Shown: positions 3,621 through 33,068 of the stretch, piece after piece | How the letters are laid out: every line of letters starts with the position of its first letter | Numbering within the stretch: position 1 is the stretch's first letter | Virus genome (UHGV): UHGV-0241771 | DNA from: a virus | Length of the DNA stretch: 38,104 nucleotides | Reading direction: 5' to 3' (one strand) | Notes under the pieces: generated by a model | Database searches by the model: none | What the model was told of the DNA's origin: nothing | What the model saw: only the letters and a program-made list of their open reading frames with translations | Position numbers and translations under genes: made by a program

Positions 3621-3648
3621 ATTTGTTCAAGTTACGGTTGTATTCATC
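3621..3648 (+). promoter_or_regulatory. Conserved 28-bp element ATTTgtTCAAGTTACGGTTGTATTCATC, copy 1, upstream of the gp11-like gene
   Basis: Near-identical copy (2 mismatches) at 33041..33068, upstream of the gp12-like gene. Both copies lie 18-28 bp before an ATG. Confidence 0.5.
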
Positions 3649-3665
3649 AGTCCTGGGGATGTGGC

Positions 3666-4235
3666 ATGATGCCTCAAATGGATAAGGTGACCGTTTTTAA
3701 CCAGGCTTTGGCCCAGTTGGGGGACCGGGAGTATGTGAAGGGTTCCCCAGCCGGTCGCACCGTTGATTTGTGGTGGCCTACCGTGTTGCAGGAAGCGCTG
3801 TTGTTCGGGGCATGGACCTGGGCAACCAAACGGGTTGAGATGGAGCGCTCTGTCATGAGGCATCCGATTCCGGATGATTGCCTGCGCGTGCTGTATGTGG
3901 GGGCGGATTTGTTCCGCATTGAGGGGCGTGATTTGGTGGTTGAGCGTTACGGGAAACGCGCCGCCGGGACCGATAAGCTGGTGGTGGATTATCTTTCCGA
4001 CGAGGTGGCCCGCTCCGAAGTGCTGCCGGATCATAGTCCGTTTTTCATCAAGGGCGTTGTGTTTCTTCTGGCTGGCAGGTGCGCTTTGAAGCTGGCTTCT
4101 TCTCCCCAGCTTGCAGCCGCTTTGGAGGCACAGGGTGAGGCGTTTTTAAGCAAGGCCCTTTATTGGGACACCTGCCAGCATGCTTCCAATGACCAGGATC
4201 CGTTAACAGAGATTTTAAACAGTTCCATTTTCTGA
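3666..4235 (+). CDS. Tail tubular protein A / adaptor, T7 gp11-like
   Basis: N-terminal VTVFNQALAQLG...WTWAT and C-terminal LPDHSPFFIKGVVFLLAGRCALKLA resemble the T7 gp11 pattern. Size is ~190 aa, similar to gp11. Confidence 0.45.
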   Translation: MMPQMDKVTVFNQALAQLGDREYVKGSPAGRTVDLWWPTVLQEALLFGAWTWATKRVEMERSVMRHPIPDDCLRVLYVGADLFRIEGRDLVVERYGKRAAGTDKLVVDYLSDEVARSEVLPDHSPFFIKGVVFLLAGRCALKLASSPQLAAALEAQGEAFLSKALYWDTCQHASNDQDPLTEILNSSIF

Positions 4236-4239
4236 TGTT

Positions 4240-4935
4240 ATGAGTTCCGATTTCGGGGTTTCCCAGCAGTATAAGTATCAGGGGCAGGCGGCTTTGAGCA
4301 ACGGGCGCGCCACGCAGGCGGCTTATGAGAAGAAGGCCCGCGCCCTGGAGGCAGAGGCGGTTTCCGATTCCCACCTGGCCGCCCGCAATATGAAGCGGAT
4401 GCGCCAGAATCAGAATACCGCCATGGGGTCTGCACGGGCACAGCGCGGCGGATCCGGTTTTACTTCCGAGGGTTCCGGAAGCCAGGCGGAGGTGGCGGTG
4501 GCGGATGTGTGGGAGAGCGCCATTGGGGATGCGGCCCTTTCCAACGCGGTTTCCGATGCCAATAAGCGGTTTGCCGCGGAGTCCGCCCGATACCAGGGTG
4601 ATCTGGCCATGATGGCGGCACACAGCGAGGCGGACCAGTATAAGATGCTTTCACAGAATGCCCTTGGTTCTGCCATGATTCAGACGGCCCTGACGGTGGC
4701 GGGGGGAGTCATGGGGGCGGCAGGAATGTCCGGTGGAGGATTGCTGGGGGGTGTTACCGAGAGCGGGCAGACGTGGGGTTCCGCCGCCGGGGGATCCCAG
4801 GGGGCTTTTTCCGGGATGATGAATGCTTATTCCCTTTCCGGTTCCCTGGGGGGGATGGTGCCGGGGAGCATGCAGTCTTCCAACAGGTTGAGGGATTCCC
4901 TGCTGGCTAATTTCATGGGTTTTGGAAAGAGATGA
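4240..4935 (+). CDS. Internal virion/ejection protein (gp14 position), Gly-rich C-terminus
   Basis: Tightly packed after the gp11-like gene. Gly/Ser/Met-rich tail (GGVMGAAGMSGGGLLGG). Confidence 0.45.
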   Translation: MSSDFGVSQQYKYQGQAALSNGRATQAAYEKKARALEAEAVSDSHLAARNMKRMRQNQNTAMGSARAQRGGSGFTSEGSGSQAEVAVADVWESAIGDAALSNAVSDANKRFAAESARYQGDLAMMAAHSEADQYKMLSQNALGSAMIQTALTVAGGVMGAAGMSGGGLLGGVTESGQTWGSAAGGSQGAFSGMMNAYSLSGSLGGMVPGSMQSSNRLRDSLLANFMGFGKR

Positions 4936-5273
4936 GCGTTTCTCCCATGCAGCAGGCTTTTTTACTGATGGAAGCCCAGCGCCCCGGCTGGTTCCGGGAG
5001 ACCGTTTCCCTGGCGGATGCGGGAGGCGGGGTCGTGTGGTGCTGCCCTTCGTTGTTTTTTGCGGGGGTGCCAGATCCGGAGTCCCCCAGGACGTTGATTA
5101 TTCTTTTTGCCCACGGCCGCATGGAGGCCGTCAGGGAGCTGGCTTGTCTGGTGCAGGGGCGTTTTGACCGGGCAAGGTGGCAGCGCTGCATCCGCGGACG
5201 CGAGGACTGGAAGGAGATTTCCATCCCAAGGTTTTTAAGTTTTAACCGTTTCAAGATGAACGAAGATGAGTGA
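4932..5273 (+). CDS. Hypothetical small core-region protein (113 aa)
   Basis: ATGA overlap at both ends links it into the structural operon. Confidence 0.4.
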   Translation: MSVSPMQQAFLLMEAQRPGWFRETVSLADAGGGVVWCCPSLFFAGVPDPESPRTLIILFAHGRMEAVRELACLVQGRFDRARWQRCIRGREDWKEISIPRFLSFNRFKMNEDE

Positions 5274-7224
5274 TTTACAGCAACCCTTGTACGGAGGAAC
5301 CCGGATGAATGCGGCTTCCTCCACCCCTTCCCCGATCCAGATGCCGGATGTTTCTTCCAAGCCCGTTCAGAGGGCGCTGCAGAATGCCCAGGAGTTTGTG
5401 TCTGATGTTGCCCACCAGTACCAGCGCATGAAGGATTTCGGCGAGCAGACGCGGCTGGAAGGCCAGATGAATGATTTGGCCAGCGAGTTTGAGCAGGAGA
5501 TAACACGGAGATTGGGGTTTGCCCGCGGTCATGAGCTGTCTTTTTACGATCGTGACGGGAGGCTGAAAGAGAGCGCCCTGAATACGTTTGTGCGGAATTA
5601 CGAAGGGAAGTTCCGCGGGTTGAAGGGAAGTTTTGTTTCCCAGGAGGAGGCTTCCAGGTTCGGAGTCAGAAAGCAGGATGTGATGCGCCGACTCCAGGGG
5701 CGGGCTTCCGAGTTGATGCTTAAGGGGCAGATTCAGGAGTCCAGGCAGGCTTTTGAGGAAGGGTTGAAGGGGGATTTGCTGCGGAGGGATTTCCAGGGAG
5801 CCACCCGTAGGCGCATTCAAGCTTACGAGGCCGGCATTGTTTCTGAGAATGGAATGAACAACGGTATTCTGGAAGATACACGGAACGGCCTTTTGGACGA
5901 ATACGAGCAGGATATGCTGATTAACCCCAGTGTTGCTTTTACGAAGCTTGGAGACGGCTATTTTGATGCTCTGGGCGCAGGAGATGTTTTAAAGCTGAAG
6001 GAGAAGACCAGAAGGTTTTTACGTTCCGCGAACCGCTCCGAAGGTGAAGATGGTGCGCCCGGTTACAGAAAGGGTTCTCTTTGGCCGAAAGCTTCCCTCC
6101 GTTACGGAGCCACGGAGCAGGAATACGACTGGGTGGAGCATTATAACCGGACCGGTAGTTACGGGAAATACGCCCCTTCCATTAAGTTTGCCTTCCGGGA
6201 GGATTTACGGAATCTGCCTCCCGCCAATTCCGGCGAAGAAAGAACGAGGTACGTCAATGACATGTTGAAGAAGTGGGGGCAGTATGGACAGGTTCTTGGA
6301 GATGAAAGGAAGCTGCGCCTGTTTGTAGAAGACCGGATTGACGCCATGGGGAGACCCAATACGAACCGGAATAATATAGAGGCCGTTTTGAAGGCCATGC
6401 CGGATCATGTGTATATTCCTTATTTTTCTTACCAGGTAGCTAATGCTTACAAGAGTGGCGACCAGGAGCAGATTAAGAAGGCAGAGAGTACGCGGGATGA
6501 GGTGGAGGCAGATATTTTGTATAAGACGGAACTTTCCATGACGGAGTGGAGACAGGCTCATCCCAATGCCACACTTGCCCAAGATCTTGCGCAGATCCAT
6601 CAATTTACCGCTTTTCATGCCGGGAACAGGTTTGCCTATCGGCCTATTATTGAAGAAGATAAGAAAAGATCTGACGAGAGCCGCATGAAGAAGGCGCTGG
6701 AGTCCATGCCTTTGTATTCTTTTGAGCAACAGGAAGAGTTGAACGTGTCTCCAGAAGAGAGGGAGGCCCAGCAAAAGAAGGCGGCACAATATATTAAGGG
6801 CCAAAGACCTTATTTGCCTTCCCCTCTTGAGAACCACCCTGTTTCTTTTGTCCGGCATGCTACATCCGGAGCGTATGTTTCCAAGCAGGCTTATGAGGCT
6901 ATCAAGGCTAAGTTTGGGAATAGACCTTTTGCCCGCATTTCTCTGGGACGCAATGGAGCTTTCCTAAGGGTTCCCGTCGTCGGGGTCTATGAGGGAACCC
7001 CGCGGGGAGTTGAGGTTTCAGGACCGCTTTATGAACGCATGGCGTTAAGGTTTCCCGGTGAACAGGCCAGCGGGAATGTCAGCATTTACGACGGGCAGGA
7101 TGAACCGGAAGCGCCGGAAGATGGATACGGACCAGGGTTGCTGCCTCCTTTGCCGGGTGGAGACGATACTTACACGCAGGTGAACGATATTGGCGACTCC
7201 GCCCTTCTTCCTCTTTACCAATAG
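5266..7224 (+). CDS. Internal virion protein (gp15 position), 652 aa
   Basis: Large helical charged protein directly upstream of the giant gp16-position gene. No enzymatic motif seen. Confidence 0.5.
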   Translation: MSDLQQPLYGGTRMNAASSTPSPIQMPDVSSKPVQRALQNAQEFVSDVAHQYQRMKDFGEQTRLEGQMNDLASEFEQEITRRLGFARGHELSFYDRDGRLKESALNTFVRNYEGKFRGLKGSFVSQEEASRFGVRKQDVMRRLQGRASELMLKGQIQESRQAFEEGLKGDLLRRDFQGATRRRIQAYEAGIVSENGMNNGILEDTRNGLLDEYEQDMLINPSVAFTKLGDGYFDALGAGDVLKLKEKTRRFLRSANRSEGEDGAPGYRKGSLWPKASLRYGATEQEYDWVEHYNRTGSYGKYAPSIKFAFREDLRNLPPANSGEERTRYVNDMLKKWGQYGQVLGDERKLRLFVEDRIDAMGRPNTNRNNIEAVLKAMPDHVYIPYFSYQVANAYKSGDQEQIKKAESTRDEVEADILYKTELSMTEWRQAHPNATLAQDLAQIHQFTAFHAGNRFAYRPIIEEDKKRSDESRMKKALESMPLYSFEQQEELNVSPEEREAQQKKAAQYIKGQRPYLPSPLENHPVSFVRHATSGAYVSKQAYEAIKAKFGNRPFARISLGRNGAFLRVPVVGVYEGTPRGVEVSGPLYERMALRFPGEQASGNVSIYDGQDEPEAPEDGYGPGLLPPLPGGDDTYTQVNDIGDSALLPLYQ

Positions 7225-7241
7225 TTTTAGCACAAGAATAT

Positions 7242-10200
7242 ATGTTTGCACAGGATGTTTTTGAGAGGTTGGGGCTGTCCCAAGATATGGATTTATTGAA
7301 AGAACTCCAGAAAGAGGCATTGTCAGAGCCAACGGAAGCGGCGCAGAGTCCCTATATGGATGACCCGGCATATGCCGGTTTTGAGACCTTGCGCGGTTTG
7401 TTTGGTTCCAATCATGGAGATAATCCCTCCATGTATTGGCTGGCACAGGGAAAAGAGATGCCTGAATTTGCCACCGTGGCGGACGCACAGGCTGCCGTCT
7501 GGAAGGATTTCCAGAAAAAAGCCCGTGCTTATCAGGCAGAGCAGGAGCGACAGCAACAGGCACGGGAGGCATTGGCTGCTACGATTGATCCCTTCATTGA
7601 CCGGTACGTGCGCGGGGACACTGTTGTTCCCTCCCCTGAACAGGTAATGATGATGCAGGAGGCGGGCATTTCCTGGGAGAGTGTCAGACGAGCCCGCAGA
7701 GGGATGCAACTTGTCCGGGAATATGACGCGCAGGGCACCCTGTACGACGACAGGATCATCAATAATCTGGCGGAACAGGTGGGAGATGATGAGCTGGCAC
7801 GGCGCATTGTGCTGAATATGTTTTATAATGACGCCAGGAAGTACGCCAAGGATAAGCACGGTGACGAGTGGACCGGGATTGACTGGATAGATAAGGCAGC
7901 CCAAGGGGTAACGGGGATGGTACGCACCGGGGGCGTGAAGGGATGGCGGACAGGTCAGAAGGCCTGGCGGAATTTACAGGTAATGGGAGAGGTGGATGCC
8001 GTTACGAATGCAGCTAAGCGTCTACCGGAGTTGATTGCTTCCGGAATGGATGTGGATGAAGCACGCGCTCAGATTGAGAAGGATGCCACTTTTCTTGAGA
8101 TACGACGCCGCTGGGCTGCCGATCTGGTTGAAACTATGGAAGCCGGGGAAAAGGAATATCTGGAAGGGGAGGACCGTCATTTGGTTGGCCGCATTGGTTC
8201 GCAGCTTGGTTCCATTATCGGAGATACGGCTCCCTGGTTCATTCCTGCCATTGGTCCTGCTATCGGAGCTTCCTCCGCCATGCAATCCCGCAGGGATGAG
8301 GGGGTAAGCATTGGGTTAACGATGGAGGAAACGGAGAAGAGGGCCATGATGTTCGGCCAGGCAGATGCTCTGGAAGAGATGATTGCTTTTTCCCCCATCG
8401 GGCGGTTGACGCCCGGATATAAGTGGTTGAAGAAGGCTCTTGGCGGTGGGAAGGCCGCCGGGAAGCTGGCCCCGTGGCGGGCTCGATGGATGGCGAGTCC
8501 GAAGGCCCAGTACGCTATTCAAGGGCTTTCCGGTGCTGCGGAAGAGGCCATTTTTGAGCCTACAGCCGGGTATTTGATGCGTACTGTACAGAGCATGAAC
8601 CTGACGGACGAACGCGGAAAACAGACTTTCCGTCAGTATTTGGACGATATGGGGCAGATGATGCACGGAGAACAGGGTCTTGCCCTGCTGGCATTTACGT
8701 TTGGGATGTCCGGCTTTAATTATCCTCAAATCAAAAAGGCGGCCCAAGAGTTTGGCCTTTCTTTGCAACATTACAAGGAATTGGGAGGCACGGTCCAGGG
8801 GTATCTGGAAGCCAGGGAGGAAAAGACCGCCGAAGGTTTTTTGAATAAGGCTCTTTCCCATTTGCATGATTCCTGGATGGAGGATCCGCAGGCTTCCATG
8901 GAGCGGGCGAGCGCGGCTGCCGGAGAACGCCTTTCCGGGGAGCGCATTGAGTCTTTGCGGGAGCTGGACGCGTGGCGGGCCGCCGAAGATGCCGGCATGG
9001 TGCCCAGGGTGGAGCCGGCGGAACAGGAGGGGATGTTCCGGGTGTATGCTCCGGCGCGCGGCACGGAAGCGCCGCGGGAGGATGCTTCCGTTTCCGGAGA
9101 GGGACAGGAAGAGGGCGCCCCTTCCTACACGCTGATGGACGGCGAGCAGATGACGGCTTATTTGCAGGCGTTTGTGGATGCCGATATGGAACATGCCATT
9201 GTCGGGGCACAACATTTGCTGGCCGGGGATGTGACCGTGGGCCAGGCCCTGGCCCAGGGGCGTTTTGACGCGGCGGAGGTGATTACGCGCACAGTGACGG
9301 ATGAACAGACAGGGGCCGAACGGGTGGTGATTGCCCCGGAGACGCTGGGGCAGATGAAGGCCCGCGCGGATATGGCGATGGCCGCTATCCGCGCCCTGGA
9401 GGCGGAGGGGGTGAGTTATGAGGAGGCCGCCGCCCGCATGGATGCTTCCCTAAGCGAGCATATTCCGCTGGGGATCCTTGTGCAGACATGGGAGGAATCC
9501 CAGGAACGCATCAGGACGGAACAGGCCCGGAACCTGGAGTTTAAGGCTCCTGCCATGGATGCCCCGTTTTCCAACGCTTATGTGACGAAGGTGCGCCGGG
9601 GAGATACGTTCCGCCGGGTGTTGAGGTATGCCCGCGGGAACGCGACGGTGGAGGATTTGATGGAGGAGACGATGGAACAGGCGGTCATTTCCTGGCAGGC
9701 GGAGCAGGGTTTGTCCTGGGACGAGTTCGGCGCGATGCTCCAAGAGGCGCAGAGGGTGATGATTGAGTTGTTTCCGGAGGCGCGGGGGGAGGAGATGCAG
9801 TTTATTCACCTGGACGCCGGGAAGCCGGTGACGGGTCATGACGCGATTGAGGCGTTTTCCAAAATCGGGCGTTCCCGCTGGCTGGCGGACGCGGTGCGGA
9901 GTACGTCCCTGCCCTCCTGGCTGCGGAATTTGCTGAATCACCTGGTGAGGTTCCTGGGGTATTTTAAGGCGCGCGTGGAGTTGGGCGAGATGGTGCGCCA
10001 GGCGGAGGAACAGGGCGTGTTTTCCCTGCCGGTGCGTCAGGCCCTGGCGGTGATGCTGGATGCGGGGAATGCCCTGTACCGGGACCAGCAGGGGGATTTG
10101 ATGGAGTTGTCCATGGAGCGGGCCAGAGCGCAGGCGGGGCTGGACGCAATGTTTGGCGCGGGCGTGGCGACGGAGGCCCGGACGCTGGAGGATGAGCTGG

Positions 10201-13200
10201 CGGAGAGCAAGGCGCAGGATGAGGAGCGCCGGCAGGAGGCCGAGGATGAGGCGCGGGCGCCGGAGAATTCCCCGGAGGCACAGGAGGCGCGGCGCGAGCG
10301 GGAGCAGGCCCGCGTGGAGGCGCTGGGCGAGCCGGATGGGTCAGGGGTGTTTAACGGGGCGTTTATTGAGGTTCAGGAGGGGGTGCGCCAGGGGTTTATT
10401 GAGAAGTCCCGGCTGACGCTTTGCCCGGATGTGCCCCAGTTTAAGCAGGGGGCGGATGAACAGACCGGGGTGGTGAATCCGATTGTGGGGGCATGGCAGC
10501 GCAATGCCGCGCCGATTTCCGTGTGGAGGCGGAAGGATGGCGCCCTGCAGGTGATCAGCGGCCGGCACCGTTTTAACGCCTGCACGGATGAGGATATTAA
10601 TTGCACGGTGTATGATGAGGCGGCCGGGTTTGATTTGGATTGGGCGCAGACGCATGATGTGGAGAATAATATCCGGGACGGGCAGGCTTCCCTGTTTGAG
10701 ATTGCCCGTTATGTGAGCCGGAAGCGTTTGACGAAGGAGGAGGCGGTGGAGAGGGGGATTTTCCGCAAGGGGCAGTCCCGCCGCGGGGTGGAACTGGGCC
10801 TGTACGGCTGTTCCGATTTGCTGGATGCGCTGGGGAATGAGCTTGTTTCTCCGGATGACGCCTGGCGCGTGGCGATGGCGTTCCGCAATCAGAACGAGGT
10901 GCAGCGGGCCGGGCTGCGTGCCCTGATGGAGGGGAAGAGCTGGCAGGCCGCTTTGGCCGTGATGCAGGTGGCCGCGAATATGGACCGCATCCGCGGGCTG
11001 GCGGAGGCGGCCGGGATGACGTTTGAGACGGATTTGTTCGGCAATTCCCACGCGGAGGAGTATTTTTCAAGGCTGGCCCAGTACGCCGCCGCCCGCGTGA
11101 GCGAGCTGACGAGGGAGATTTCTTCCATTAGCGGGGCGAGCAGACGCCCGGAGACGGCCAGGAAGTATGGCGTGGATGTGAGGGATGCCGCCGCGCTGGA
11201 GGCGGTGGTGAAGGATTTGAAGGCGCAGAGGGCCCAATGGCAGAATTTCGGCCTGCATGAGGAGTTGATTAAGGAGGCCAATGATGCCGTGATGGTGGAG
11301 CTGGGGATGAAGACGCAGGAGGAGGTGGACCGGGAGAACGGCGTGCTTCCTTTGGAGGCGCCGGAACAGGAGGCGGGGTCCGCCGATACGGGGATGTTGC
11401 AGCTTTCCCAGGATGTGAGCCGGATGCTGGATGCGGCGCTGACGAGGGGGGCTGCCCCTGCGGAAGATGAGGCTCCCGCAGCGAATTTTTCCCTGATGTC
11501 CATTTCTTCCGGGGATGTGGTGAGTTCCGCCGCCGGGATGCGGGCGAGGTTGAAACCGTTGCAGGGCAAGGTGTTCGTCAATAAGAATACGGGGATCCAG
11601 GCCGTGATTGAGGCGCGCGTTTCCGGCAAGACGGTGGGCAAGGCCGGGGCTTCACAAATGTCCGTGGCGAATTTGAAGACGCTTGGGTTTTCCGCGGAGG
11701 AGGCCCGGAGGGTTCATTATACGGCGGCCACCCGCATTCATGAGTTGTTTGAGAATGCGGAGGATGGATTTTTTGAAGAGGCGTATAAACAAGATGCCTC
11801 AAAAGCCGGAGCCTATCATTTTTTCAATACAGTAGATATTGAAGGGATAGGAGCGTTTGATGTTAATGTTACAGCAATCAAATACGTTAAGGAACAGGAA
11901 GGTAACGTTCTTTACACGCTGGAATTGACCATAGAAAACCCCGCCACTAGGGGAGCTGCTAGCCGGGAAGGCCGCCTACCTACACCCTTCAAGGACGGGG
12001 TTTCTACCCGTAATTTATCTTCTTACCGTTCTTTTGTCGAGAAGGAAAAGGCGGCTGTCAGGAAGAAGGCGGAGTCTGACGGGACGTTCATGAAGGCTCC
12101 GAATGGGAAGGATACGAATCTGACGGAAGACCAGTGGCTGTCCGTGCGCACGGAGGCGTTTAAGAGTTGGTTTGGCGATTGGGAGCATGACCCGTCCAAT
12201 GCCTCCAAGGTGGTGGACGAGAATGGGGAGCCGCTGGTGGTGTATCATGGTTCTCCGCATGTTTTTACCGTGTTTGACGTGGAGCGTTCCGGAGAGAATT
12301 TTAACCGGAGCCGGGAGGATGGAGGGTTGTTGTTTTTTTCTTCCCTGCCGGAGACGGCGGAAGATGTGCTTTATGATTTAGAGGGCCGTTTTCCGGGGAC
12401 CGGGTTGGAGAGTGCGCGGCTGTATGCGTGTTTTATGAGGTTGAGGCGTCCGTTTATGCTGGATCTTGGCGATGCTTCACAGCGCCCGTTTTCCGGGGAG
12501 GGTGTGCCGGAGAATGTGAAGGGTTCCCCGATGGCGTGGTATTTGTTTCCTCACGAGTTGAGGAGAGGGTTTGATGAGGGGAATGCTCATGGCGCGGGTT
12601 ATGACGGTGTTGTTTTGAAGGGCAAGAATGCTTATGACGGGAGTCCGGAGGTGTGGGGGATGGCTACGGATTCCCGGCAGGTGAAGAGCGCTGTCGATAA
12701 CCGCGGGACGTTTGATTCAGATAGTCCGGATATTACGTTTTCCATTATTGGGGAGAAGGCTGAATCCTTCCAGGAGTACCACAATAACGGCCTTTCCTAC
12801 ACGGATCCGGCGGACGGGAAGCGGAAGGCGATTATTGATTCCCGCGGGGTGCGGTTGAGGAAGGAGCACGTCAGCGTGAGCGAGGGGGGGCATGTGAATG
12901 TTTCCCTGGCCGCGGCCCTGGATTTTCCGGAACTGTTCCGGGCCTACCCGGAGCTGCGGAGGCTGCGGGTGGATTTTTACCGCGACAGCGGGAGCGGCAC
13001 GGGAGGGTTTACCGATCCGCAGGAGCATTATATTGCCGTGAATGTGGCACGGGGCGGAAAGAACGCGGCTCCCGGCATGGTGCTGGATACGATTTTACAC
13101 GAGGTGCAGCATGTGATTCAGGGGTATGAGGGGTTTGCCCAGGGGGCCGGGAGCATGAGCCGGGAGCAGGCGCTTGCTTATCTGGGCGGGAGCATGAGCC

Positions 13201-16200
13201 AGCTGGCGGGCCGGGGCGACGACTGGGCGAAGGCGGCCCTACCCCGCCTGGAGCGGATGAAGCGGGAGCTGGAGGCTGGGACGTTGCAGCCGGCGTTTGT
13301 GTATGTTTTTTCCCACGGGGAGCAGGAGGCGCGGCTGGCCGGGACGTTTGAGAAGAATAGCGAGGGGGTCTTGATGAGCGGGCTGAACGGGTTCCGGCTG
13401 CTGGACGCTCCGCAGTTTTCGATTCCGCTGACGGGGGATATTACGGAGCTTGGCGGCATTACGTTCGGGGCCGGGAGGTTTGGACGGATGGCCGGCAGGG
13501 TTCTGGCTCCGAACGGGGATTGGCTTTACGATGAGATGGTGTTCAGGATGCGGGCCGCCACGCAGCGGTCCGTGAGTAAGCTGCGCCTGTTTGAGACCGG
13601 GGACCGGGAGCGCGGCCTTGAGCTGCTGGCGGAGGCGCAGGAGCTGATTTCCACAGTGGAGCGGTATTTGCCTAATTCTTACGGGTTCGGGCTGGAGCCT
13701 TACAAGATCTGGCTGAATGTGTTTTCCCTGCTTTACGGGAATAGCGGGAAGATGGCGCCGGGCGATGCGGTGGCCAGCGCGTTGGAAGCGATTCCTATGA
13801 GGAGGTGGCCGGAGATTATGGAGGGGAGCATTGGCAAGAGTTTTGTCAATTGGGCGGAGAAGAGGCCGGAGCTGGAGGATGTGGTGGTGGAGGCCCGGAG
13901 GGAGATTGCCGAACGGCAGGCTGATTACGAGCTGGATTCTGCTCCGGACGCGGATAACAGGGCCGCCCTGGCGGCCCGCAAGGGGGTGGAACAGGAGGTG
14001 TGGCGCCGGTTGTTTGAGGAGCACGGGGCCGAGTTTCTGGAGGAGTACGGGGAACAGAAGGTGTTCCGGCTTGTGGGGAAGTTTATGGAGCGCGTGGTGG
14101 AGCAGATTGACCGCTTCCGGAAGGACCGGACGCTGGGGCGCATCCGCCGCGTGGCGGCTTCCGTGGCTCCGCGGACGAGTCCGCAGGGGAAGCCGATGCG
14201 CGGGAAGATGGACGCGGAGAGTTACCGGAGGCTGGAGAGGTGCTTGCGCCTGCTGGAGATGACCGAGAGCCAGTACGATGAGTTTTTCCAGAAGAATTTT
14301 CCGGAGGATGCCGAGGAGGGGAAGAGGTGGGAGGATCTGGCCCCGGATGCGCTGGTGCTGGTGACGCTGCCCGACGCGGAAGGGAGGCTGGAAGAGGTGG
14401 CCGTAACGCAGCGGGAGTTTGAGGTTTACGCCTGTTATGAACGGATGGACGTGAATACCGCGGAGAAGTGCGGCGCGGCCCTTGGAGAATTGATTGCCAC
14501 GTCCCGCCATGCCTGGGAGAACGCAGCGGAGAAGAAGAAGCTGGAGGTTGCCGCCATGGCCGCCCCACTGCTGCAGGCCACCGGGGATTTGGATGATAGC
14601 AGGATGGCGACGTTCCGCCGGAAGGCGAGGCTGCGGGCTTTGCCGAAGAATCCCCTTTCCCTGTTTGATTACCTGATGAATTTTAATCAGTATATGCAGG
14701 CGCTTTCTTCCGTGGAGCCGTTTGCCGGGGTTGCCCGCCAGTTTGAGGAACGGGCGGCGCGGTTTAATGTGCAGCGGCAGGCGAGCGAGAAGGAGATGCT
14801 GCGTTTTGTGCATCATACCGTAGCGGAGATTGCGGGGTCCGCGGACCGGTATGATATTGCCGAGTGGATTTATGAGGGGCGCATGAAGCAGGATACGGGG
14901 ATTTCTGTTGTGGAGCGGGAGCCGTATTGGAACAGGAAAGCAAACGCCCTGTACCGGGAACGCCTTCTTCATTTGCTGCGCCGGAAGGTGAAGTCCCACG
15001 GGCTGGAAGCGGTGCAGCTTTATTTGAGGGAGTTTAAGCTTTCCGAGGGTTTGAAGAAGGAGGTGGACGCCCTGTTCGGGCACCGCCGCAAGGATATTTC
15101 CGCCAAGCAGGCGAAGAAGGCATTGGAGCACATGGAGCGCGTGTTTACGCAGAAGGAGTGGGAGCGGTACGGGGACCAGAATGTTTTTGTGAGGGAGCGG
15201 GCGGAGATGCTGCGATCCAGGACGAAGTATGCCAAGGAGGGGTATCAGCCGAAGAGTTTCCGGCTGGATGGCCTGTCCCGGATGGAGGCGGCGTATTTGG
15301 TGCTGTTGTCCGAGCAGGCGGATTATACCGAGGCCCTGGCGGAACGCGGGTTTGACGCGGAGGTGATGGACCGGCTGCGCGGGTTTGCCGGGGATGAGGT
15401 GATGCGGTTTGCTTACGCCTTGAGAGAGAAATTGAATGAACGGAGCGGACAGGTGCAGGAGATGACCGAGAGGCGCTACGGCTCACCGTTTCCGCTGACG
15501 GAGAATTATTTCCGGGCGTTTTTCGATGTGACGATGGAGGCGATTGATAAGTCGATTGCTGATGCGGCGTCTTACGGGGAAGCGGCCACAGGCGGGAAGT
15601 TCGGGTTGATTCACGCCCGCCGGAAGCATCAGGCGCACCTGGATTTGGAGATGGATGTTTGCACGGCGTTTATGGCGGCCATGACCGAGCAGGATCTTTA
15701 CCTGTATGGTTCCGAGATCAGCCGTGATTTGCGGGCCCTGCTGAATTTTAAGGGTGAGGATGGCGAGGCGGGCCGGAGCCTGGAGGTGCTGTTGGGGCGG
15801 GATGCCGTGGGCAAGCTGATGGCCTGGGCGGATGCGTTTGACCGCGCCGGGGCGGAGAGTATCCGGGGGCACCTGGATATGAACCGCCTGATGAACCGGC
15901 TTTCCGGCGCGGCGGCGCGGGTGCTGCTGGCCGGGCGCGTGGGGACGCTGACCAAGCAGGTGACGACGGTGATTAACGCGATGTATGCTTCCGACGAGAT
16001 TGGCCTTGCCGAGTGGCTGGGGGCCGTCCGCCGGTATCACGCCGGGAAGCTGGTGAAGCCTGTGCGCGAGATAGAGGTTCTGCCGGAGCTGGACAGCCGC
16101 GACAAGACGCGGTTCAGTGCTACGCTGGCTGCCATGGGGGCCGACGAGGCCGGGCGCCGGGTGTCCCGCCTGGAACGCTGGAACCGGGAGGGGATGGATT

Positions 16201-17027
16201 TGCTGGAGCGGGTGGATATGAAGGGGAATGCGATTTCCGCGGCTATTTTGTACGATGCGGTTTACCGGAAGATGAAGCGTGAGACGCCGGACGCTACGGA
16301 GGCCGAGCTTGACGCGGCCGCCATGGCGGAGGTGCGGCGCTCCCTGTCCCGCAAGGGTCAGCCGATGACGCAGCTGCAGAAGTCCCTGGCCGCGCAGCAC
16401 CGGACCTGGATGCAGGCGGGGATGTTGTTCCTGGGCGGCGAGTCAATCAATACGATGGGCAATGTGTTTTCCCTGGCCCGCAGCGGGCAATGGGGGAAGG
16501 CCGGGTTGATGTGGGTTTCTCACGGGATGGTGCTGGCCCTTCTGAATGGACTGCTTAATTTCATGACCGATGACGAGAAGCGCCGCCGGAAGCGGGAGTG
16601 GTGGCACGCCCTGTTTGATGTGGTGATGGGGCCCGTGATGGGGATTCCTGTAGTAAGCGGGCTGGCTGGTGAGGGCGTGAGGCAGCTTGCGAAGCTGTGC
16701 GGGTATCATGCTTTTATGCCGGGGAATAATTTGCTGGTGCCGTTTTCTAATGCGGCGGATATCGGGAAGGCGTTTTCCAACGCCTGGAAGTTGTTTGACG
16801 GCAAGGAACGGCCCTGGGAGGATGACGCCCTTTCTTTCCACGAGCTTTTACGCACCGCAGCAGCGGGGACGGTGGCTTTTTCTCCACGGACAACCAAGGG
16901 GGGCGCCGCTGCTGTAGGAGCCGCCCTGACGATGGCGCTTCTGCTGAATGTGACGGAGTTTGCCCTTAAAACAGTCCGCAGCGTTCAGGAGAACGGTGCG
17001 GACTGGGATAAGTGGGTCGGAAGATGA
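7242..17027 (+). CDS. Giant 3261-aa polyvalent virion protein (gp16 position) with ParB-like nuclease, ADP-ribosyltransferase-like and HExxH zincin modules plus C-terminal membrane helices
   Basis: Single uninterrupted 9.8-kb ORF. DGALQVISGRHRFNA at ~10.54 kb is a ParB/Srx GxxR motif. VVYHGSPHVFTVFDVE at ~12.24 kb resembles the PARP/diphtheria-class H-G-S ART motif. LDTILHEVQHVIQGYEG is at ~13.1 kb. Hydrophobic helices at 16.40-16.69 kb and 16.89-16.95 kb. Confidence 0.8.
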   Translation: MFAQDVFERLGLSQDMDLLKELQKEALSEPTEAAQSPYMDDPAYAGFETLRGLFGSNHGDNPSMYWLAQGKEMPEFATVADAQAAVWKDFQKKARAYQAEQERQQQAREALAATIDPFIDRYVRGDTVVPSPEQVMMMQEAGISWESVRRARRGMQLVREYDAQGTLYDDRIINNLAEQVGDDELARRIVLNMFYNDARKYAKDKHGDEWTGIDWIDKAAQGVTGMVRTGGVKGWRTGQKAWRNLQVMGEVDAVTNAAKRLPELIASGMDVDEARAQIEKDATFLEIRRRWAADLVETMEAGEKEYLEGEDRHLVGRIGSQLGSIIGDTAPWFIPAIGPAIGASSAMQSRRDEGVSIGLTMEETEKRAMMFGQADALEEMIAFSPIGRLTPGYKWLKKALGGGKAAGKLAPWRARWMASPKAQYAIQGLSGAAEEAIFEPTAGYLMRTVQSMNLTDERGKQTFRQYLDDMGQMMHGEQGLALLAFTFGMSGFNYPQIKKAAQEFGLSLQHYKELGGTVQGYLEAREEKTAEGFLNKALSHLHDSWMEDPQASMERASAAAGERLSGERIESLRELDAWRAAEDAGMVPRVEPAEQEGMFRVYAPARGTEAPREDASVSGEGQEEGAPSYTLMDGEQMTAYLQAFVDADMEHAIVGAQHLLAGDVTVGQALAQGRFDAAEVITRTVTDEQTGAERVVIAPETLGQMKARADMAMAAIRALEAEGVSYEEAAARMDASLSEHIPLGILVQTWEESQERIRTEQARNLEFKAPAMDAPFSNAYVTKVRRGDTFRRVLRYARGNATVEDLMEETMEQAVISWQAEQGLSWDEFGAMLQEAQRVMIELFPEARGEEMQFIHLDAGKPVTGHDAIEAFSKIGRSRWLADAVRSTSLPSWLRNLLNHLVRFLGYFKARVELGEMVRQAEEQGVFSLPVRQALAVMLDAGNALYRDQQGDLMELSMERARAQAGLDAMFGAGVATEARTLEDELAESKAQDEERRQEAEDEARAPENSPEAQEARREREQARVEALGEPDGSGVFNGAFIEVQEGVRQGFIEKSRLTLCPDVPQFKQGADEQTGVVNPIVGAWQRNAAPISVWRRKDGALQVISGRHRFNACTDEDINCTVYDEAAGFDLDWAQTHDVENNIRDGQASLFEIARYVSRKRLTKEEAVERGIFRKGQSRRGVELGLYGCSDLLDALGNELVSPDDAWRVAMAFRNQNEVQRAGLRALMEGKSWQAALAVMQVAANMDRIRGLAEAAGMTFETDLFGNSHAEEYFSRLAQYAAARVSELTREISSISGASRRPETARKYGVDVRDAAALEAVVKDLKAQRAQWQNFGLHEELIKEANDAVMVELGMKTQEEVDRENGVLPLEAPEQEAGSADTGMLQLSQDVSRMLDAALTRGAAPAEDEAPAANFSLMSISSGDVVSSAAGMRARLKPLQGKVFVNKNTGIQAVIEARVSGKTVGKAGASQMSVANLKTLGFSAEEARRVHYTAATRIHELFENAEDGFFEEAYKQDASKAGAYHFFNTVDIEGIGAFDVNVTAIKYVKEQEGNVLYTLELTIENPATRGAASREGRLPTPFKDGVSTRNLSSYRSFVEKEKAAVRKKAESDGTFMKAPNGKDTNLTEDQWLSVRTEAFKSWFGDWEHDPSNASKVVDENGEPLVVYHGSPHVFTVFDVERSGENFNRSREDGGLLFFSSLPETAEDVLYDLEGRFPGTGLESARLYACFMRLRRPFMLDLGDASQRPFSGEGVPENVKGSPMAWYLFPHELRRGFDEGNAHGAGYDGVVLKGKNAYDGSPEVWGMATDSRQVKSAVDNRGTFDSDSPDITFSIIGEKAESFQEYHNNGLSYTDPADGKRKAIIDSRGVRLRKEHVSVSEGGHVNVSLAAALDFPELFRAYPELRRLRVDFYRDSGSGTGGFTDPQEHYIAVNVARGGKNAAPGMVLDTILHEVQHVIQGYEGFAQGAGSMSREQALAYLGGSMSQLAGRGDDWAKAALPRLERMKRELEAGTLQPAFVYVFSHGEQEARLAGTFEKNSEGVLMSGLNGFRLLDAPQFSIPLTGDITELGGITFGAGRFGRMAGRVLAPNGDWLYDEMVFRMRAATQRSVSKLRLFETGDRERGLELLAEAQELISTVERYLPNSYGFGLEPYKIWLNVFSLLYGNSGKMAPGDAVASALEAIPMRRWPEIMEGSIGKSFVNWAEKRPELEDVVVEARREIAERQADYELDSAPDADNRAALAARKGVEQEVWRRLFEEHGAEFLEEYGEQKVFRLVGKFMERVVEQIDRFRKDRTLGRIRRVAASVAPRTSPQGKPMRGKMDAESYRRLERCLRLLEMTESQYDEFFQKNFPEDAEEGKRWEDLAPDALVLVTLPDAEGRLEEVAVTQREFEVYACYERMDVNTAEKCGAALGELIATSRHAWENAAEKKKLEVAAMAAPLLQATGDLDDSRMATFRRKARLRALPKNPLSLFDYLMNFNQYMQALSSVEPFAGVARQFEERAARFNVQRQASEKEMLRFVHHTVAEIAGSADRYDIAEWIYEGRMKQDTGISVVEREPYWNRKANALYRERLLHLLRRKVKSHGLEAVQLYLREFKLSEGLKKEVDALFGHRRKDISAKQAKKALEHMERVFTQKEWERYGDQNVFVRERAEMLRSRTKYAKEGYQPKSFRLDGLSRMEAAYLVLLSEQADYTEALAERGFDAEVMDRLRGFAGDEVMRFAYALREKLNERSGQVQEMTERRYGSPFPLTENYFRAFFDVTMEAIDKSIADAASYGEAATGGKFGLIHARRKHQAHLDLEMDVCTAFMAAMTEQDLYLYGSEISRDLRALLNFKGEDGEAGRSLEVLLGRDAVGKLMAWADAFDRAGAESIRGHLDMNRLMNRLSGAAARVLLAGRVGTLTKQVTTVINAMYASDEIGLAEWLGAVRRYHAGKLVKPVREIEVLPELDSRDKTRFSATLAAMGADEAGRRVSRLERWNREGMDLLERVDMKGNAISAAILYDAVYRKMKRETPDATEAELDAAAMAEVRRSLSRKGQPMTQLQKSLAAQHRTWMQAGMLFLGGESINTMGNVFSLARSGQWGKAGLMWVSHGMVLALLNGLLNFMTDDEKRRRKREWWHALFDVVMGPVMGIPVVSGLAGEGVRQLAKLCGYHAFMPGNNLLVPFSNAADIGKAFSNAWKLFDGKERPWEDDALSFHELLRTAAAGTVAFSPRTTKGGAAAVGAALTMALLLNVTEFALKTVRSVQENGADWDKWVGR

Positions 17028-24614: not shown

Positions 24615-24776
24615 AACGGAATAGTAGCCTGACAGCTTTCATCTTCAAGAATAATGAGCCGGCATGCGCATGAATTTAGGCAATACGAGCACATTCAAAG
24701 CCAAGACGTTACATTGGCAGGCTCTCCACTTTTATTTAAGTAATAACAACCAATATTAATCACTAACAAATAATCA

Positions 24777-26856: not shown

Positions 26857-26873
26857 GAAGGAGAAGCAGATAC

Positions 26874-28055: not shown

Positions 28056-28441
28056 TGACTACATTGACCATTACCTTGCCCCACACGCCGCGCTGCCTGT
28101 CCCCGAATGCGAAGGCCCCTCTCACTCCGAGGGGGGCCATTGTGGCAAACAAGAAGAAGGTGTCTGCCAAACAACGTGCCCGGACGATGGCGTGGGCAAT
28201 CACTTGGGAAGCCCTGAAAGGACAGAAGTTTGTACCCACTCACTACCGGGTAATCTGGTATTTCAAGGGAGACCCGCCCGATGATGATAATGTCCTGACG
28301 CGCTGTAAATATTATAAGGACGGAGCGTGCAAGGCCATGAAGATTGACGACGGCCCCCTGCGTTGCCTGGGGATTGACCGCGTACATGATCTTACCCGCG
28401 CCGGACAGGTGGAAATCGTGTTTGAAAGGAGGGAGCAATGA
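28052..28441 (+). CDS. rusA: RusA Holliday-junction resolvase
   Basis: GGAGG SD. TLTITLPHTP... DDDN ... DDGPL pattern parallels E. coli RusA ITLPWPPS ... DLDN ... DDAQV. Confidence 0.8.
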   Translation: MMTTLTITLPHTPRCLSPNAKAPLTPRGAIVANKKKVSAKQRARTMAWAITWEALKGQKFVPTHYRVIWYFKGDPPDDDNVLTRCKYYKDGACKAMKIDDGPLRCLGIDRVHDLTRAGQVEIVFERREQ

Positions 28442-30132: not shown

Positions 30133-30133
30133 T

Positions 30134-31147
30134 ATGCCAACACGATTGATCAGAGATGCTATTTTGACATCAGGGCGCGTCGCCTCCCTTTCGTGGGAAG
30201 CGGAGGTGTTCTACCGACGCCTGATGTCTGTGGCAGACGATTACGGCCTTTATGACGCCAGGACGCCTATTCTCCGTTCTGCGCTGTATCCTCTCCAACT
30301 CGACAAGATGAGCGAGTGCAATATTCAACGCTGCCTCTCCGCGTGTGAGGCCGCGGGGCTTATTCTGCTTTATTCTCACAATGAGAAGCCATACTTGATG
30401 ATTCTGGGGTTCGACCAGCAGGGGAAGTCCATGCCCAAATGGCCGCTTCCGAACGGTTACGAAGTGCTGAAAGTTTCCGACAAGAAGTACGAACTGCGGA
30501 AATTCGTAACAGGTCGTAACGATTCGCCTCAACCCGTTACTTATGCGAATGCGTATTCGGATGCGAATGCGAAGACGAATAAACAAGAAAATAATGCAGG
30601 GGGAGATAACACGGTGGTTTTTAGCGAGCCGCCCACTGATCCTGCCTCCCCTATCCCGAACCGGGAACGCTTGAACGACGTCCGGGGGATGCGCTGCGCC
30701 GACAACCATGCAGACCTGGGATCTTCTCCCGGTGCTGCCCGGTTTGTGGTTGCCACCCTTGCAATCAACCCATCCTGGTCCCGGACTTTGCCAACCGCCC
30801 TTGAGCAGGCCGCCGCGCTTGAGGCTTACCGGTCCGCGCAGGGGCGGGTGACGCCGCGGGATATGGAGATGCTCAAGGCTTACTACGCCAGCGGCTTGAC
30901 GCATGACCGGAGCAATAAGGCTTTTTGGCGTCCGGACAGCCGTAAAAAGTTTTGGGAGTGCTTCGGCGACGTTTTGACGCATGCCGACAGGTGGGCTAAG
31001 GAGACGCGTTGGAAGCCCGTCTCCGCCCGCAAGAAACCGAAACTCGAAGAACCACGGCAGCCGGAAGGGCCCGTTGTGGATACCGACACGGCGGCGAAAG
31101 AACTGCGAGAATGGAGACAAGAATTAGGATTGGGAGGTGAGGCATGA
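30134..31147 (+). CDS. Phage replication initiation/organizer protein (wHTH N-terminal domain)
   Basis: AGGAGG SD. The N-terminus (FYRRLMSVADDYGLYDARTPILRSALYPL...AAGLILLY) resembles DnaD/Lin1244-like N-terminal domains of phage replication proteins. Low-complexity linker encoded by a GCGAATGCG DNA repeat. Confidence 0.4.
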   Translation: MPTRLIRDAILTSGRVASLSWEAEVFYRRLMSVADDYGLYDARTPILRSALYPLQLDKMSECNIQRCLSACEAAGLILLYSHNEKPYLMILGFDQQGKSMPKWPLPNGYEVLKVSDKKYELRKFVTGRNDSPQPVTYANAYSDANAKTNKQENNAGGDNTVVFSEPPTDPASPIPNRERLNDVRGMRCADNHADLGSSPGAARFVVATLAINPSWSRTLPTALEQAAALEAYRSAQGRVTPRDMEMLKAYYASGLTHDRSNKAFWRPDSRKKFWECFGDVLTHADRWAKETRWKPVSARKKPKLEEPRQPEGPVVDTDTAAKELREWRQELGLGGEA

Positions 31148-31452
31148 AGCAGTCGGAGTTAAAATTGATGTCTATCATGTCTGCTGCTTTTTCACGGCTG
31201 AAAATGTCTCCGGTTCAGATAGCCATTCTTTCCTGTATCGGTCTTAATCCCGGCATTCGGTTCGGAGAAATTGCCAACCGCGTTTCCGTATCTTCCAGCC
31301 GTCTGTGCTTTCACTTGAATACCCTTTGCGGTGCAGGAGACGTTTCTACCTCCCAATATGGTGGCAGATTCAAAAAAGGTTATTTCCTCACGGCACAAGG
31401 GCGTAAACGATTGGAAGACGCGATCACACGAACGATGAAAGATCATGCCTAA
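31144..31452 (+). CDS. Winged-HTH transcriptional regulator (MarR/ArsR-like)
   Basis: PVQIAILSCIGLNPGIRFGEIANRVSVSSSRLCFHLNTL HTH-wing pattern. ATGA overlaps. Confidence 0.45.
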   Translation: MKQSELKLMSIMSAAFSRLKMSPVQIAILSCIGLNPGIRFGEIANRVSVSSSRLCFHLNTLCGAGDVSTSQYGGRFKKGYFLTAQGRKRLEDAITRTMKDHA

Positions 31453-32041
31453 GAGAGATAAAACATCTATTGCCACAGAGAAGAAGAAGGAATTTGCCAG
31501 GCTCTTGGTTGAGTCAAAATTGTCCAAAGCGGACGCATATCGTAAAGCTTACAAGCGCAAGGACATGAGTAATGACGCGGCCAGTAAGGCGGCTTCTCGT
31601 TTGTCCAAAGATGGCGAAATTTTGCGAATGATTGATGAATTGAATGCCCAGTTGGACAGATCAGCGATTGCCACCAAGCAGGAATGCCTTGAGTTTCTTA
31701 CTGCTGTGTTGCGTACACCGATTGGACAAGTTGGGGAAGATTCGCCACTGTGCCAGGAGATTGCTTACACGGATTCCGGGATGCGTAAAAAGATGCCTGG
31801 AAAGATTGAGGCAGTCAGGGAGCTTTCCAAGCTGGCCGGATATAATGAGCCGGAGAAGTTGGAGGTTGGCGGCTTGTCGCAGATTGCCGAGGTGCTTGCC
31901 GGAACGAAGCAGGACCCTCTTGTGCGGCCTGATAATGGCAATCCTGCTCCGATTGAGTTTGACGGGATAGAGACTGTCCAGGAAGACAAAGAACGCCGCC
32001 CAGGGGTACTGGACGGCGTGGGGAATGAACCGTTGGTTTAA
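31445..32041 (+). CDS. Terminase small subunit
   Basis: N-terminus KKKEFARLLVESKLSKADAYRKAYKRKDMSNDAASKAASRLSKDGEILRMIDE fits the Terminase_2-type small subunit HTH region. Confidence 0.6.
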   Translation: MPKRDKTSIATEKKKEFARLLVESKLSKADAYRKAYKRKDMSNDAASKAASRLSKDGEILRMIDELNAQLDRSAIATKQECLEFLTAVLRTPIGQVGEDSPLCQEIAYTDSGMRKKMPGKIEAVRELSKLAGYNEPEKLEVGGLSQIAEVLAGTKQDPLVRPDNGNPAPIEFDGIETVQEDKERRPGVLDGVGNEPLV

Positions 32042-33006
32042 ACGGCTATTTCACATGATTCCAGACTTGGATTGCTTTTCAAATTCATTTCATTTTGAAG
32101 AAATTGCATATCATCTTCTGATACTCTTTCGATCAAATCATTCTTTTCAAACAAACCTTTATTCAAAAGGTAATTTGTTATGTTATCATATTTTAAAATT
32201 ACTCCCGAAAGATATATTGTGTCCCAATCTTTTTCTGAAAACATATTTTTTATTATATATAAATATTTCTCTTTTTGTTTATCGTTTAAACATTTTTCAT
32301 CTATAACCAATAAAATAAAATTGTATGTAGAATCAATCCATGGCCTAATTGTCAGAATGATAGAAACAATGTAAGCAATACACTCTAAACTATTACAAGT
32401 CACATTTTCATCTTTGTTAAATTTAAATGATTCAATTTCTTTTATATTATTCTTTATATCAACAAAGAACGAACCAAGCATTTCTATAAAATAATCAATA
32501 GCCGAACTAAAATCGCCCCAATTTGTCTTAACTTCTTTCGGAATATTTTTTATAAAAGCAATATGTTGATAGAAAAAACTTTCAAACTGTTGAATTTTCA
32601 TTAACTTATTTTGAAGTTCAAATTCATTAGCCTGTCTTTCCTGTTCCCTGCATTGAGCCTTCAATTCCCTGCGCTGCAAACTCAATTCCCTTCTTTGAAG
32701 TTGAAGCTCCAAACGCTGCTGATAAAGGGCATAAATGAAACAAATGAAAGCGAATCCAGCAAACAAGGCATTTAATCCTCCGTACATATCCCCACTGATT
32801 CCGAGATGAGATGACGATGGAAAATCAATTTTGCCCAGTCCCCAGCCTACCACTTTGAGGACAAACCACGTAATGAAAGGCCACATAATAAAGAGCCCGA
32901 AAACTATAAAGGACAAGCAACACACCCAATTCCTCTTTGATCGTTTCTTTTTTGAAGAAGCTTCTTGATCTGCCATAGAGGAAAATGTAACCCTTTCATA
33001 TTTCAC
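32038..33006 (-). CDS. Low-GC membrane protein (2 TM) with coiled-coil and ~200-aa C-terminal domain; antisense moron between terS and the tail gene
   Basis: ~33% GC versus ~56% in flanks. Opposite strand to all neighbours. TM helices VCCLSFIVFGLFIMWPFITWFVLKVVGW and LNALFAGFAFICFIYALY. QRLELQLQRRELSLQRRELKAQ coiled coil. Confidence 0.5.
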   Translation of the reverse strand: MKYERVTFSSMADQEASSKKKRSKRNWVCCLSFIVFGLFIMWPFITWFVLKVVGWGLGKIDFPSSSHLGISGDMYGGLNALFAGFAFICFIYALYQQRLELQLQRRELSLQRRELKAQCREQERQANEFELQNKLMKIQQFESFFYQHIAFIKNIPKEVKTNWGDFSSAIDYFIEMLGSFFVDIKNNIKEIESFKFNKDENVTCNSLECIAYIVSIILTIRPWIDSTYNFILLVIDEKCLNDKQKEKYLYIIKNMFSEKDWDTIYLSGVILKYDNITNYLLNKGLFEKNDLIERVSEDDMQFLQNEMNLKSNPSLESCEIAV

Positions 33007-33040
33007 CTGTCAACGTATTTCACCAATCTGATCATTGCCG

Positions 33041-33068
33041 ATTTACTCAAGTTACGGTTGTATTCATC
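33041..33068 (+). promoter_or_regulatory. Conserved 28-bp element, copy 2, upstream of the gp12-like gene
   Basis: ATTTacTCAAGTTACGGTTGTATTCATC, 26/28 identical to 3621..3648. Sits in the divergent region between the low-GC moron and the gp12-like gene. Confidence 0.5.

Follow-up and report, generated by a model that had tools for sequence, protein, structure and literature searches.

Why would a phage genome repeat one short stretch of DNA ahead of two tail genes that lie far apart from each other? The question is raised by the virus genome UHGV-0241771, a sequence of 38,104 nt (hereafter the window, i.e., the whole stretch of DNA that was analyzed) from a temperate podophage of Akkermansia, for which near-identical deposited DNA was found in Akkermansia phages only and only across short stretches. 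The window carries a 28-nt element twice on its plus strand, once upstream of a gene for a gp11-like tail protein (copy E1 at 3621..3648, ATTTGTTCAAGTTACGGTTGTATTCATC) and once upstream of a gene for a gp12-like tail nozzle protein (copy E2 at 33041..33068, ATTTACTCAAGTTACGGTTGTATTCATC). Sequence comparisons with relatives of this phage suggest that the element is probably a factor-dependent late promoter box for virion and packaging units, the upstream two-thirds of which would be bound by a phage-specified protein.

The initial annotation of the window had described two copies sharing 26 of 28 positions, 22 of them contiguous, and this is exactly what we found. When the two intergenic regions are aligned locally, the similarity begins and ends with these 28 nt, and the flanks are unrelated, so the copies are not part of a larger duplicated segment, and 100 dinucleotide-preserving shuffles gave no chance match to the element at up to three mismatches. 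Both copies lie close upstream of a start codon as originally noted, with gaps of 17 nt (from the 3' end of E1 to the ATG at 3666) and 28 nt (from E2 to the ATG at 33097). A third copy in the window, which had been denied for its intergenic regions, did not appear in a relaxed scan either: allowing up to six mismatches to the 18-nt core of the element yielded 19 matches compared to 15.4 ± 3.0 in shuffles, with none comparably placed. One candidate, TATTCATATCTCCGGCG at about 37843–37859, matches the 3' end and right flank of E2 (TATTCAT-CCTCCGGCG) at 15 of 17 positions with one gap, but it is weak, not conserved in relatives, and probably due to chance. Since the last 39 nt and the first ca. 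300 nt of the window form a single collinear alignment in relatives, the window is a closed circle and this molecule holds no unread remainder of a prophage. The distance of 29 kb that had been given for the two copies is thus correct in one direction (29.4 kb), while the other way around the circle they are only 8.7 kb apart.

Within the element, an invariant core (3628–3645 in E1 and 33048–33065 in E2) overlaps an imperfect inverted repeat, TTCAA-N7-TTGTA, that matches at four of five positions. Its half-sites are TTCAA (3626–3630) and TTGTA (3638–3642) in E1 and CTCAA (33046–33050) and TTGTA (33058–33062) in E2. The pattern YCAA-N7-TTGTA matches E1 and E2 only in the window (0.36 matches expected), with the central 7 nt invariant in the exact copies, and a binder would presumably be a dimer. 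The right half-site runs into TATTCA (3641–3646 in E1, 33061–33066 in E2), a weak −10-like hexamer, TATTCA/G across copies, that lacks the usual T at the last position and whose register is our own reading.

How far this sequence is constrained can be judged from relatives. A total of 64 IMG/VR stretches contain the exact 22-nt core, as does one prophage-bearing Akkermansia metagenome-assembled genome (MAG), whereas no other representative genome does. Because the first loci had been picked by the sequence of the element itself, relatives were also fetched via their gp11-like, gp12-like, portal, and winged-helix proteins. All clade-A relatives fetched by protein carry the element, including lineages in which both of its flanks have been replaced (L097, with another terminator and another leader at its gp11 copy, as well as L105/L108, L131, L208, L211, and L213), and in L208, L211, and L213 the element is kept while the winged-helix protein is 75–87% identical. 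Across 30 distinct haplotypes of 108 nt, the 18-nt core CAAGTTACGGTTGTATTC is invariant together with TT at −5/−4 and T at +19 (motif TTNNYCAAGTTACGGTTGTATTCRTS; degenerate form of the box motif, TTNNYCAAGTNNNNNTTGTAT), while the majority base in flanking columns mostly reaches a frequency of 0.3–0.6. The left flank of E2 alone exists in at least five unrelated forms: directly abutting the stop codon of the small terminase gene (terS), a 37-nt remnant, several alleles of a divergent cargo gene, other cargo with its own terminator, or an unrelated AT-rich segment. The ca. 10 nt to the right of E2 vary as well. In the most diverged lineages, the first 300 nt of gp12 agree with the window at only 63–67% of silent third positions, and at that rate the probability of 18 unchanged sites is about 4e-4 (0.65^18). 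Gene conversion could homogenize copies within one genome but not across lineages, so the conservation of the core points to selection; on these comparisons, the core is under strong purifying selection.

The initial annotation had proposed that the element specifically co-regulates the tail gene pair and that the rest of the prophage should be searched for more copies. None exist in the closed window, but complete integrated prophages, which we took from large Akkermansia contigs, contain a third exact copy and two relaxed ones. The left arm of these long forms reads host gene, tRNA, integrase, major capsid protein (PF19821), terminator, third exact copy, and a fiber-like protein of ca. 680 aa, and continues with small variable open reading frames (ORFs), endolysin, portal, scaffold, terminator, E1, and gp11. 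The third copy (E3) directly follows a terminator hairpin with its T-run and lies 31–33 nt before the ATG of the fiber-like gene. The relaxed copies stand in tandem in the 80-nt gap between the integrase and capsid genes, with the sequences TTTTGTTCAAGTCGTGGG[CT]GT and TTTTGTTCAAGTCG[TC][GA][GA]TTGTATGT[CT]TCC, and the second of them ends 33 nt before the capsid ATG. In this capsid variant both half-sites are kept, the central 7 nt vary between relatives, and TATTC is changed to TATGT(T), which makes for a better −10. The exact copies in complete prophages head the gp12–TerL, fiber–lysis–portal–scaffold, and gp11–internal protein operons, so that the box or its variant stands at the head of every one of the four late transcription units. 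These copies ahead of fiber and capsid genes contradict a function specific to the tail pair and argue for a general late-operon box.

Among 119 metagenome stretches with the 18-nt core, the three exact classes account for 104 (28, 41, and 35 stretches), one further stretch (L244) is a gp12-type copy cut at the locus end, and the other 15 are unrelated chance contexts. The unrelated matches comprise 12 copies of one sequence, which lies within an ORF of 884 aa from a low-GC organism, plus two marine scaffolds and two singletons, a number that chance could produce for an 18-mer given the size of the collection. A box search in deposited phages gave chance matches only.

The gap between terS and E2 is a hot-spot for cargo (in the window and in L105, L116, L208, L211, and L213), which in the window is a low-GC (33%) gene of 322 aa on the minus strand (32038..33006) that relatives lack or have swapped for other cargo: they harbor alleles at 40–54% identity, other genes with their own terminator, the 37-nt remnant, or nothing at all. 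These insertions are always found to the left of the element and never between the element and gp12. The isolate genome 2850266918 (L131:2940-3000) has a gp12 copy that bears the leader of the fiber copy, GTGCGGCAAAAATGTGTGCTAATAGGGAGGCATG, i.e., a leader swap by recombination between copies. Three more loci (L286, L329, and L351) show hybrid junctions in which the left flank of the gp11 copy is joined to the fiber-copy leader (portal–scaffold–terminator–element–fiber), and these either arose by recombination, as a duplication or small circle, or were mis-joined by the assembler over a shared 23-mer in short, low-coverage contigs.

The position of the box within these units suggests what it does. 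Its orientation is always sense, the first start codon of the respective structural operon follows after 17–35 nt, and a strong terminator ends 1–20 nt before it at E1, at E3, and, in L211 and L213, at E2. At E1 of the window this is a strong intrinsic terminator on the plus strand (3581..3619, with a 15-pair stem at 3581–3613 and a T-run) that closes the portal–scaffold unit only 1–2 nt before the box. From terminator to ATG there are about 50–60 nt in which the box is the only conserved sequence, so a new transcript would have to start there. The box is followed by ca. 10 variable nt and then by a conserved stretch containing a Shine-Dalgarno sequence, which would make the former the start-site region and the latter the leader. 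The conservation, the orientation, and the order of terminator, box, and ATG thus fit cis-acting late control, in line with the late promoter or activator site that had first been suggested, though not one limited to the tail pair.

We propose that, after induction, the long rightward early/middle operon (about 25272–32041) would be transcribed and that its penultimate gene would yield a winged-helix protein that is small, basic, and MarR-like. As a dimer, this protein would bind the imperfect inverted repeat inside the box and let host RNA polymerase start a few bases downstream of it at an otherwise poor promoter that has a weak −10-like hexamer and no recognizable −35. The short leaders produced in this way would carry the Shine-Dalgarno sequence, and the terminator directly ahead of the box would insulate each late unit from upstream transcription. 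The transcription start at the box, the protein binding, and its activating effect are what we infer from this arrangement. The capsid variant, with its half-sites kept, its spacer varying, its −10 improved, and its two copies in tandem, shows the behavior expected of a dimer site joined to a −10 at the gene with the highest demand for expression.

Known promoter classes do not account for the box. Promoters of A. muciniphila show −35 and TATAAT signals (PMC4782308). Sigma-70 consensus scans of the window listed no site at E1 or E2, and a test for a canonical sigma-70 promoter, which calls for a TTGACA-like −35, a spacer of 16–18 nt, and a TATAAT-like −10 with A at position 2 and T at position 6, failed because the best register uses TATTCA/G without its final T and places the −35 in the non-conserved flank. 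Sigma-54, sigma-32, sigma-E/ECF, sigma-28, and Bacteroidetes-type consensus sequences were compared by eye in both orientations, and none fitted. Another register, with TTGTAT as −35 and a downstream TGn-extended −10 giving leaderless transcripts, was numerically workable for some copies and was dropped because clear Shine-Dalgarno sequences (GGGAGG, GAGAGGGG, and GGGGA) stand between box and ATG. A nut/put-type antitermination site was also discarded because the box sits downstream and not upstream of terminators, and it forms no hairpin. Neither a phage RNA polymerase nor a sigma factor was detected among the ORFs of the window or the long-form left arm, so the box would have to be read by host polymerase together with a factor.

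What could this factor be? The initial annotation had pointed to a winged-helix protein as candidate binder, which is a reasonable choice given its MarR-like fold and its co-occurrence with the element, with the role as binder being our extrapolation from these features. This 102-aa basic, MarR/ArsR-like protein (31144..31452, plus strand; 15 K+R versus 6 D+E) comes from the last gene but one of the early/middle operon, which overlaps the start of terS. Its Pfam matches are limited to HTH_24, MarR, HTH_34, and HVO_0163, and PHROGs place it in a single family of unknown function. A structural model (pLDDT 84.9) shows a helix, a winged helix-turn-helix, and a further helix; Foldseek retrieves MarR family proteins (E ca. 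1e-5, TM 0.6–0.76) and also ArsR, and all top fold matches are repressors. In homologs down to 75% identity, the recognition helix (residues 49–58) is conserved at nine of ten positions, with S or T at residue 52, while the wing drifts, and the protein as a whole is better conserved than the neighboring terS. The gene accompanies the element with unchanged gene order in 90 of 90 fetched loci that extend at least 2.6 kb upstream of the gp12 copy, and it is absent from the fetched flanks (1.5–3 kb upstream of gp12) of 36 element-less clade-B loci. That this protein is an activator binding the box seems quite possible to us, though short of probable. A CI-type repressor was considered as binder as well and rejected, given that its switch region shows no half-site pattern.

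Several observations speak against this proposal. The co-occurrence counts include redundant loci, and the clade-B flanks reach only 1.5–3 kb upstream. Element and protein do not co-vary: the box is unchanged even where the protein is only 75% identical, with its recognition helix nearly unchanged, and as both are constant the pairing is argued from their joint presence in a single lineage. With TATTCA as the −10, the center of the inverted repeat would fall near −19, and MarR-type proteins bound there usually repress rather than activate. This hexamer, in the register chosen here, is without the usual final T, the repeat itself is imperfect, and the three exact copies do not differ in their central 7 nt, a constraint that a simple dimer site does not need.

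In a first alternative, the box would be a promoter that an alternative sigma factor, or some other unrecognized phage or host factor, reads directly, with no involvement of the winged-helix protein. The box is asymmetric overall, its 18–22 contiguous invariant positions exceed what a dimeric winged-helix protein needs, it misfits the sigma-70 consensus, and several small early proteins without recognizable domains could be candidates. However, the window and the long-form left arm showed no sigma factor or RNA polymerase, and the invariant block is too short to accommodate both −35 and −10 at normal sigma spacing. In addition, the exact 22-mer is missing from representative bacterial genomes other than the one prophage-bearing Akkermansia MAG, which means that no host regulon uses this exact sequence. 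We therefore regard this alternative as rather unlikely.

The known habits of MarR-family proteins suggest a second one, in which the box is an operator where the MarR-like or another protein holds the late promoters off until it is titrated or inactivated. These proteins mostly act as repressors by binding over core promoter elements, all the top fold matches of our candidate are repressors, and with TATTCA as −10 the inverted repeat would indeed overlap the core promoter. Yet the box comes without a good promoter to repress, given its lack of a −35 and its poor −10, and the two tandem sites stand ahead of the capsid gene, where expression is needed most and where recruitment fits better than repression. 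Repression through the box thus seems unlikely.

An element acting in RNA, i.e., a translational operator, small RNA target, or RNase site in the 5' leader that coordinates late protein synthesis, would be compatible with the sense orientation 17–35 nt from start codons, and conservation of every base would suit base pairing. On the other hand, the minimum free energy (MFE) of the element is 0, its three leaders are less stably folded than shuffles (z +0.9 to +1.1), and no Rfam family matches it (the only Rfam match being a tRNA at 37663–37730). No complement of the element beyond chance was found elsewhere in the genome, nor was the exact 22-mer found on either strand of representative host genomes. 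The terminators immediately upstream would leave little room for a promoter that places the box inside a transcript, and the capsid variant, in which half-sites are kept while the center varies, follows a pattern of protein–DNA recognition, so that we consider a function at the RNA level quite improbable.

A role in recombination or packaging, be it as module boundary, as pac site, or as target of a recombinase, is highly improbable despite the leader swap in L131, the hybrid junctions, the cargo insertions clustered beside E2, and the position of E2 next to terS, because multiple recombinase targets in the same orientation would split the genome, a pac site is normally unique, no recombinase was detected besides the tRNA-site integrase with its own att core, the observed exchange is what any repeated sequence would suffer, and the constant distance and orientation to first genes would remain unexplained.

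A factor-dependent late promoter box read with the help of a small phage protein, which is the reading we favor, resembles several known systems without matching any of them. In temperate Gram-positive phages, regulators of the Ltr/RinA/ArpU type bind a late-promoter sequence and switch on morphogenesis, packaging, and lysis genes, with a cognate pair of protein and site in each group (PMC3753634, PMC3152322). Like these regulators and Alt of lactococcal phage TP901-1, the protein studied here is small, basic, and encoded beside terS where the early operon ends. However, it is MarR/ArsR-like and not a detectable member of RinA, ArpU, or LtrA-C. Their binding site, a repeat region, belongs to one late promoter located upstream of terS, whereas the boxes described here are found downstream of terS and head three to four operons, the winged-helix gene overlaps terS and leaves no gap for a promoter, and the host of this phage is a Verrucomicrobium.

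Phages of the T7 group use conserved class III promoters of about 23 bp at several late gene heads and have a terminator after the capsid gene. The likeness includes several near-identical, asymmetric boxes of ca. 20 nt before structural genes, the T7-like portal, gp11, and gp12 genes, and a strong terminator after the capsid/scaffold unit, but the single-subunit RNA polymerase of T7-like phages has no counterpart detected among the ORFs of the window or the long-form left arm. The middle promoters of T4 (MotA box plus −10) as well as Mor/C-dependent promoters of Mu and Ogr-dependent promoters of P2 have no usable −35 and instead rely on a phage activator at a conserved box that overlaps the −35 position or lies just upstream of it and that is present in several copies per genome; from these, the system described here differs in the sequence and length of its box (18–22 invariant nt) and in the fold of the candidate. 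A pseudo-palindromic site of 16–23 bp, as in MarR operators, would be compatible with a winged-helix dimer, but MarR proteins are typically ligand-responsive repressors of about 140–150 aa, whereas the candidate has 102 aa, is phage-encoded, and is proposed to activate. Tests for each known late-switch system thus failed due to another regulator family, several sites downstream of terS, or the absence of a detected phage polymerase. The function we propose is ordinary phage late-gene control, and a comparable element has not been described before in this host phylum and phage lineage; our search of the literature turned up nothing on regulation in Akkermansia podophages.

The sister clade (clade B) shares only gp12–TerL with the phage studied here and has a T7-like gene order of capsid, small ORF, and gp12. 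It lacks the element but has an exact 18-nt box of its own, TGACACTCGGCAACTTGC, 37–38 nt before the ATG of both capsid gene and gp12 (L154:1371-1388 and 2948-2965; L143:1366-1383). The reverse complement of this box contains GCAAGTTGC, which resembles TCAAGTTAC of the element studied here.

A comparison with complete prophages also sheds light on the circle itself. The endolysin ORF (ATG at about 38091) runs across the circle junction (37554–38104 joined to 1–548), and tblastn searches of the window for integrase, major capsid protein, and fiber-like gene gave no significant matches; the third element copy is missing, too. Complete relatives place all four between the att core and the endolysin gene. 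The short junction of the window (TerL, att core, ca. 290 nt, endolysin) is also found in L262, L342, and L200, whereas L229 and L281 have the long junction (TerL, att core, integrase, capsid). The 38-kb circle may represent a derivative that has no capsid gene and depends on a helper, or else a tandem array or an assembly that collapsed, and looking up its exact TerL for flanking DNA gave no match. We find it rather doubtful that the full combination applies in which the MarR-like 102-aa protein would be a positive late switch bound in the spacer/−35 region of the 22-nt invariant box, replacing −35 recognition, and in which the circle may be a helper-dependent derivative that keeps its boxes for the regulator of the complete phage. 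To our knowledge, MarR-type proteins have not been reported to substitute for −35 recognition as a positive switch. Among the variable ORFs between fiber-like and endolysin genes, one integrated relative (L233:5888-6244) encodes a Tad2-like (PF11195) anti-defense gene.

The attachment core of the circle, on the plus strand at 37663..37778, consists of a tRNA-like segment and a terminator (37741–37773) and ends the gp12–TerL unit. The tRNA-like segment (37663–37730) scores 30.4 bits as tRNA in Rfam while ARAGORN finds nothing, and positions 37691–37778 share 98.9% identity with the attL that an integrated relative carries at the end of a full tRNA gene (L234:850-937).

The genes downstream of the two boxes, which are all on the plus strand, differ in how well they can be assigned. 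The initial annotation had called both first genes tail-tubular homologs. For the gp12-like protein (33097..35922, 941 aa) this assignment to tail nozzle/tail tubular protein B is solid given its sequence matches to PHROG 376 (E 2.6e-94) and PDB 8ck1 ("Tail Nozzle", E 2.6e-49), and annotated homologs carry the name tail tubular protein B/tail nozzle. For the gp11-like protein (3666..4235; 189 aa, also in relatives) there is no PDB sequence match, and the label comes from PHROG 394 ("tail protein", E 1.3e-13). The E2-headed unit continues with the large terminase as second gene (35844..37553, PHROG 2), while the E1-headed unit continues (4240..17027) with virion proteins of 231, 113, 652, and 3261 aa. 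The small terminase upstream of E2 (31445..32041, plus strand; PF03592, PHROG 51) has a stop codon that in some relatives abuts E2 directly.

The gp12-like protein is a mosaic (33097–35922 compared with L113, L143, and L208) with ca. 470 N-terminal and ca. 560 C-terminal residues conserved and a variable middle. It is 941 aa long in the window versus about 1135–1154 aa in relatives, and the gene of L143 holds an internal direct repeat of 72 nt. The 3261-aa protein (7242–17027) is a polyvalent virion protein with an ADP-ribosyltransferase domain (PF18760, residues 1659–1824) and an LPD3 domain; one relative has a 3610-aa version with LPD5/LPD1 domains instead. It is followed by a low-GC (36–48%) accessory and lysogeny region at 17000–25100, mostly on the minus strand, that encodes DUF3800, DUF6804 with a zinc ribbon, and DUF2971 as well as an S24 CI-type repressor (22558–23382) and a SieB-like superinfection exclusion protein (23653–24153, PF14163, E 1.7e-12). 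Other recognized genes of the window encode a T7-type portal (PF12236), a scaffold-like protein of 259 aa, RecT, an exonuclease, a methyltransferase, and a replication initiator.

A. muciniphila is a prominent gut commensal and probiotic candidate for which few genetic tools and almost no characterized phage biology are available. As an expected kind of late-gene control, the box comes as a moderate surprise. Together with its probable cognate regulator, it would explain how virion production is timed in a widespread lineage of Akkermansia prophages, and it is a sequence tag by which late operons of these prophages can be located in metagenomes. If the activator model holds true, box and regulator would moreover be a tight, orthogonal activator–promoter switch that could be used in Akkermansia.

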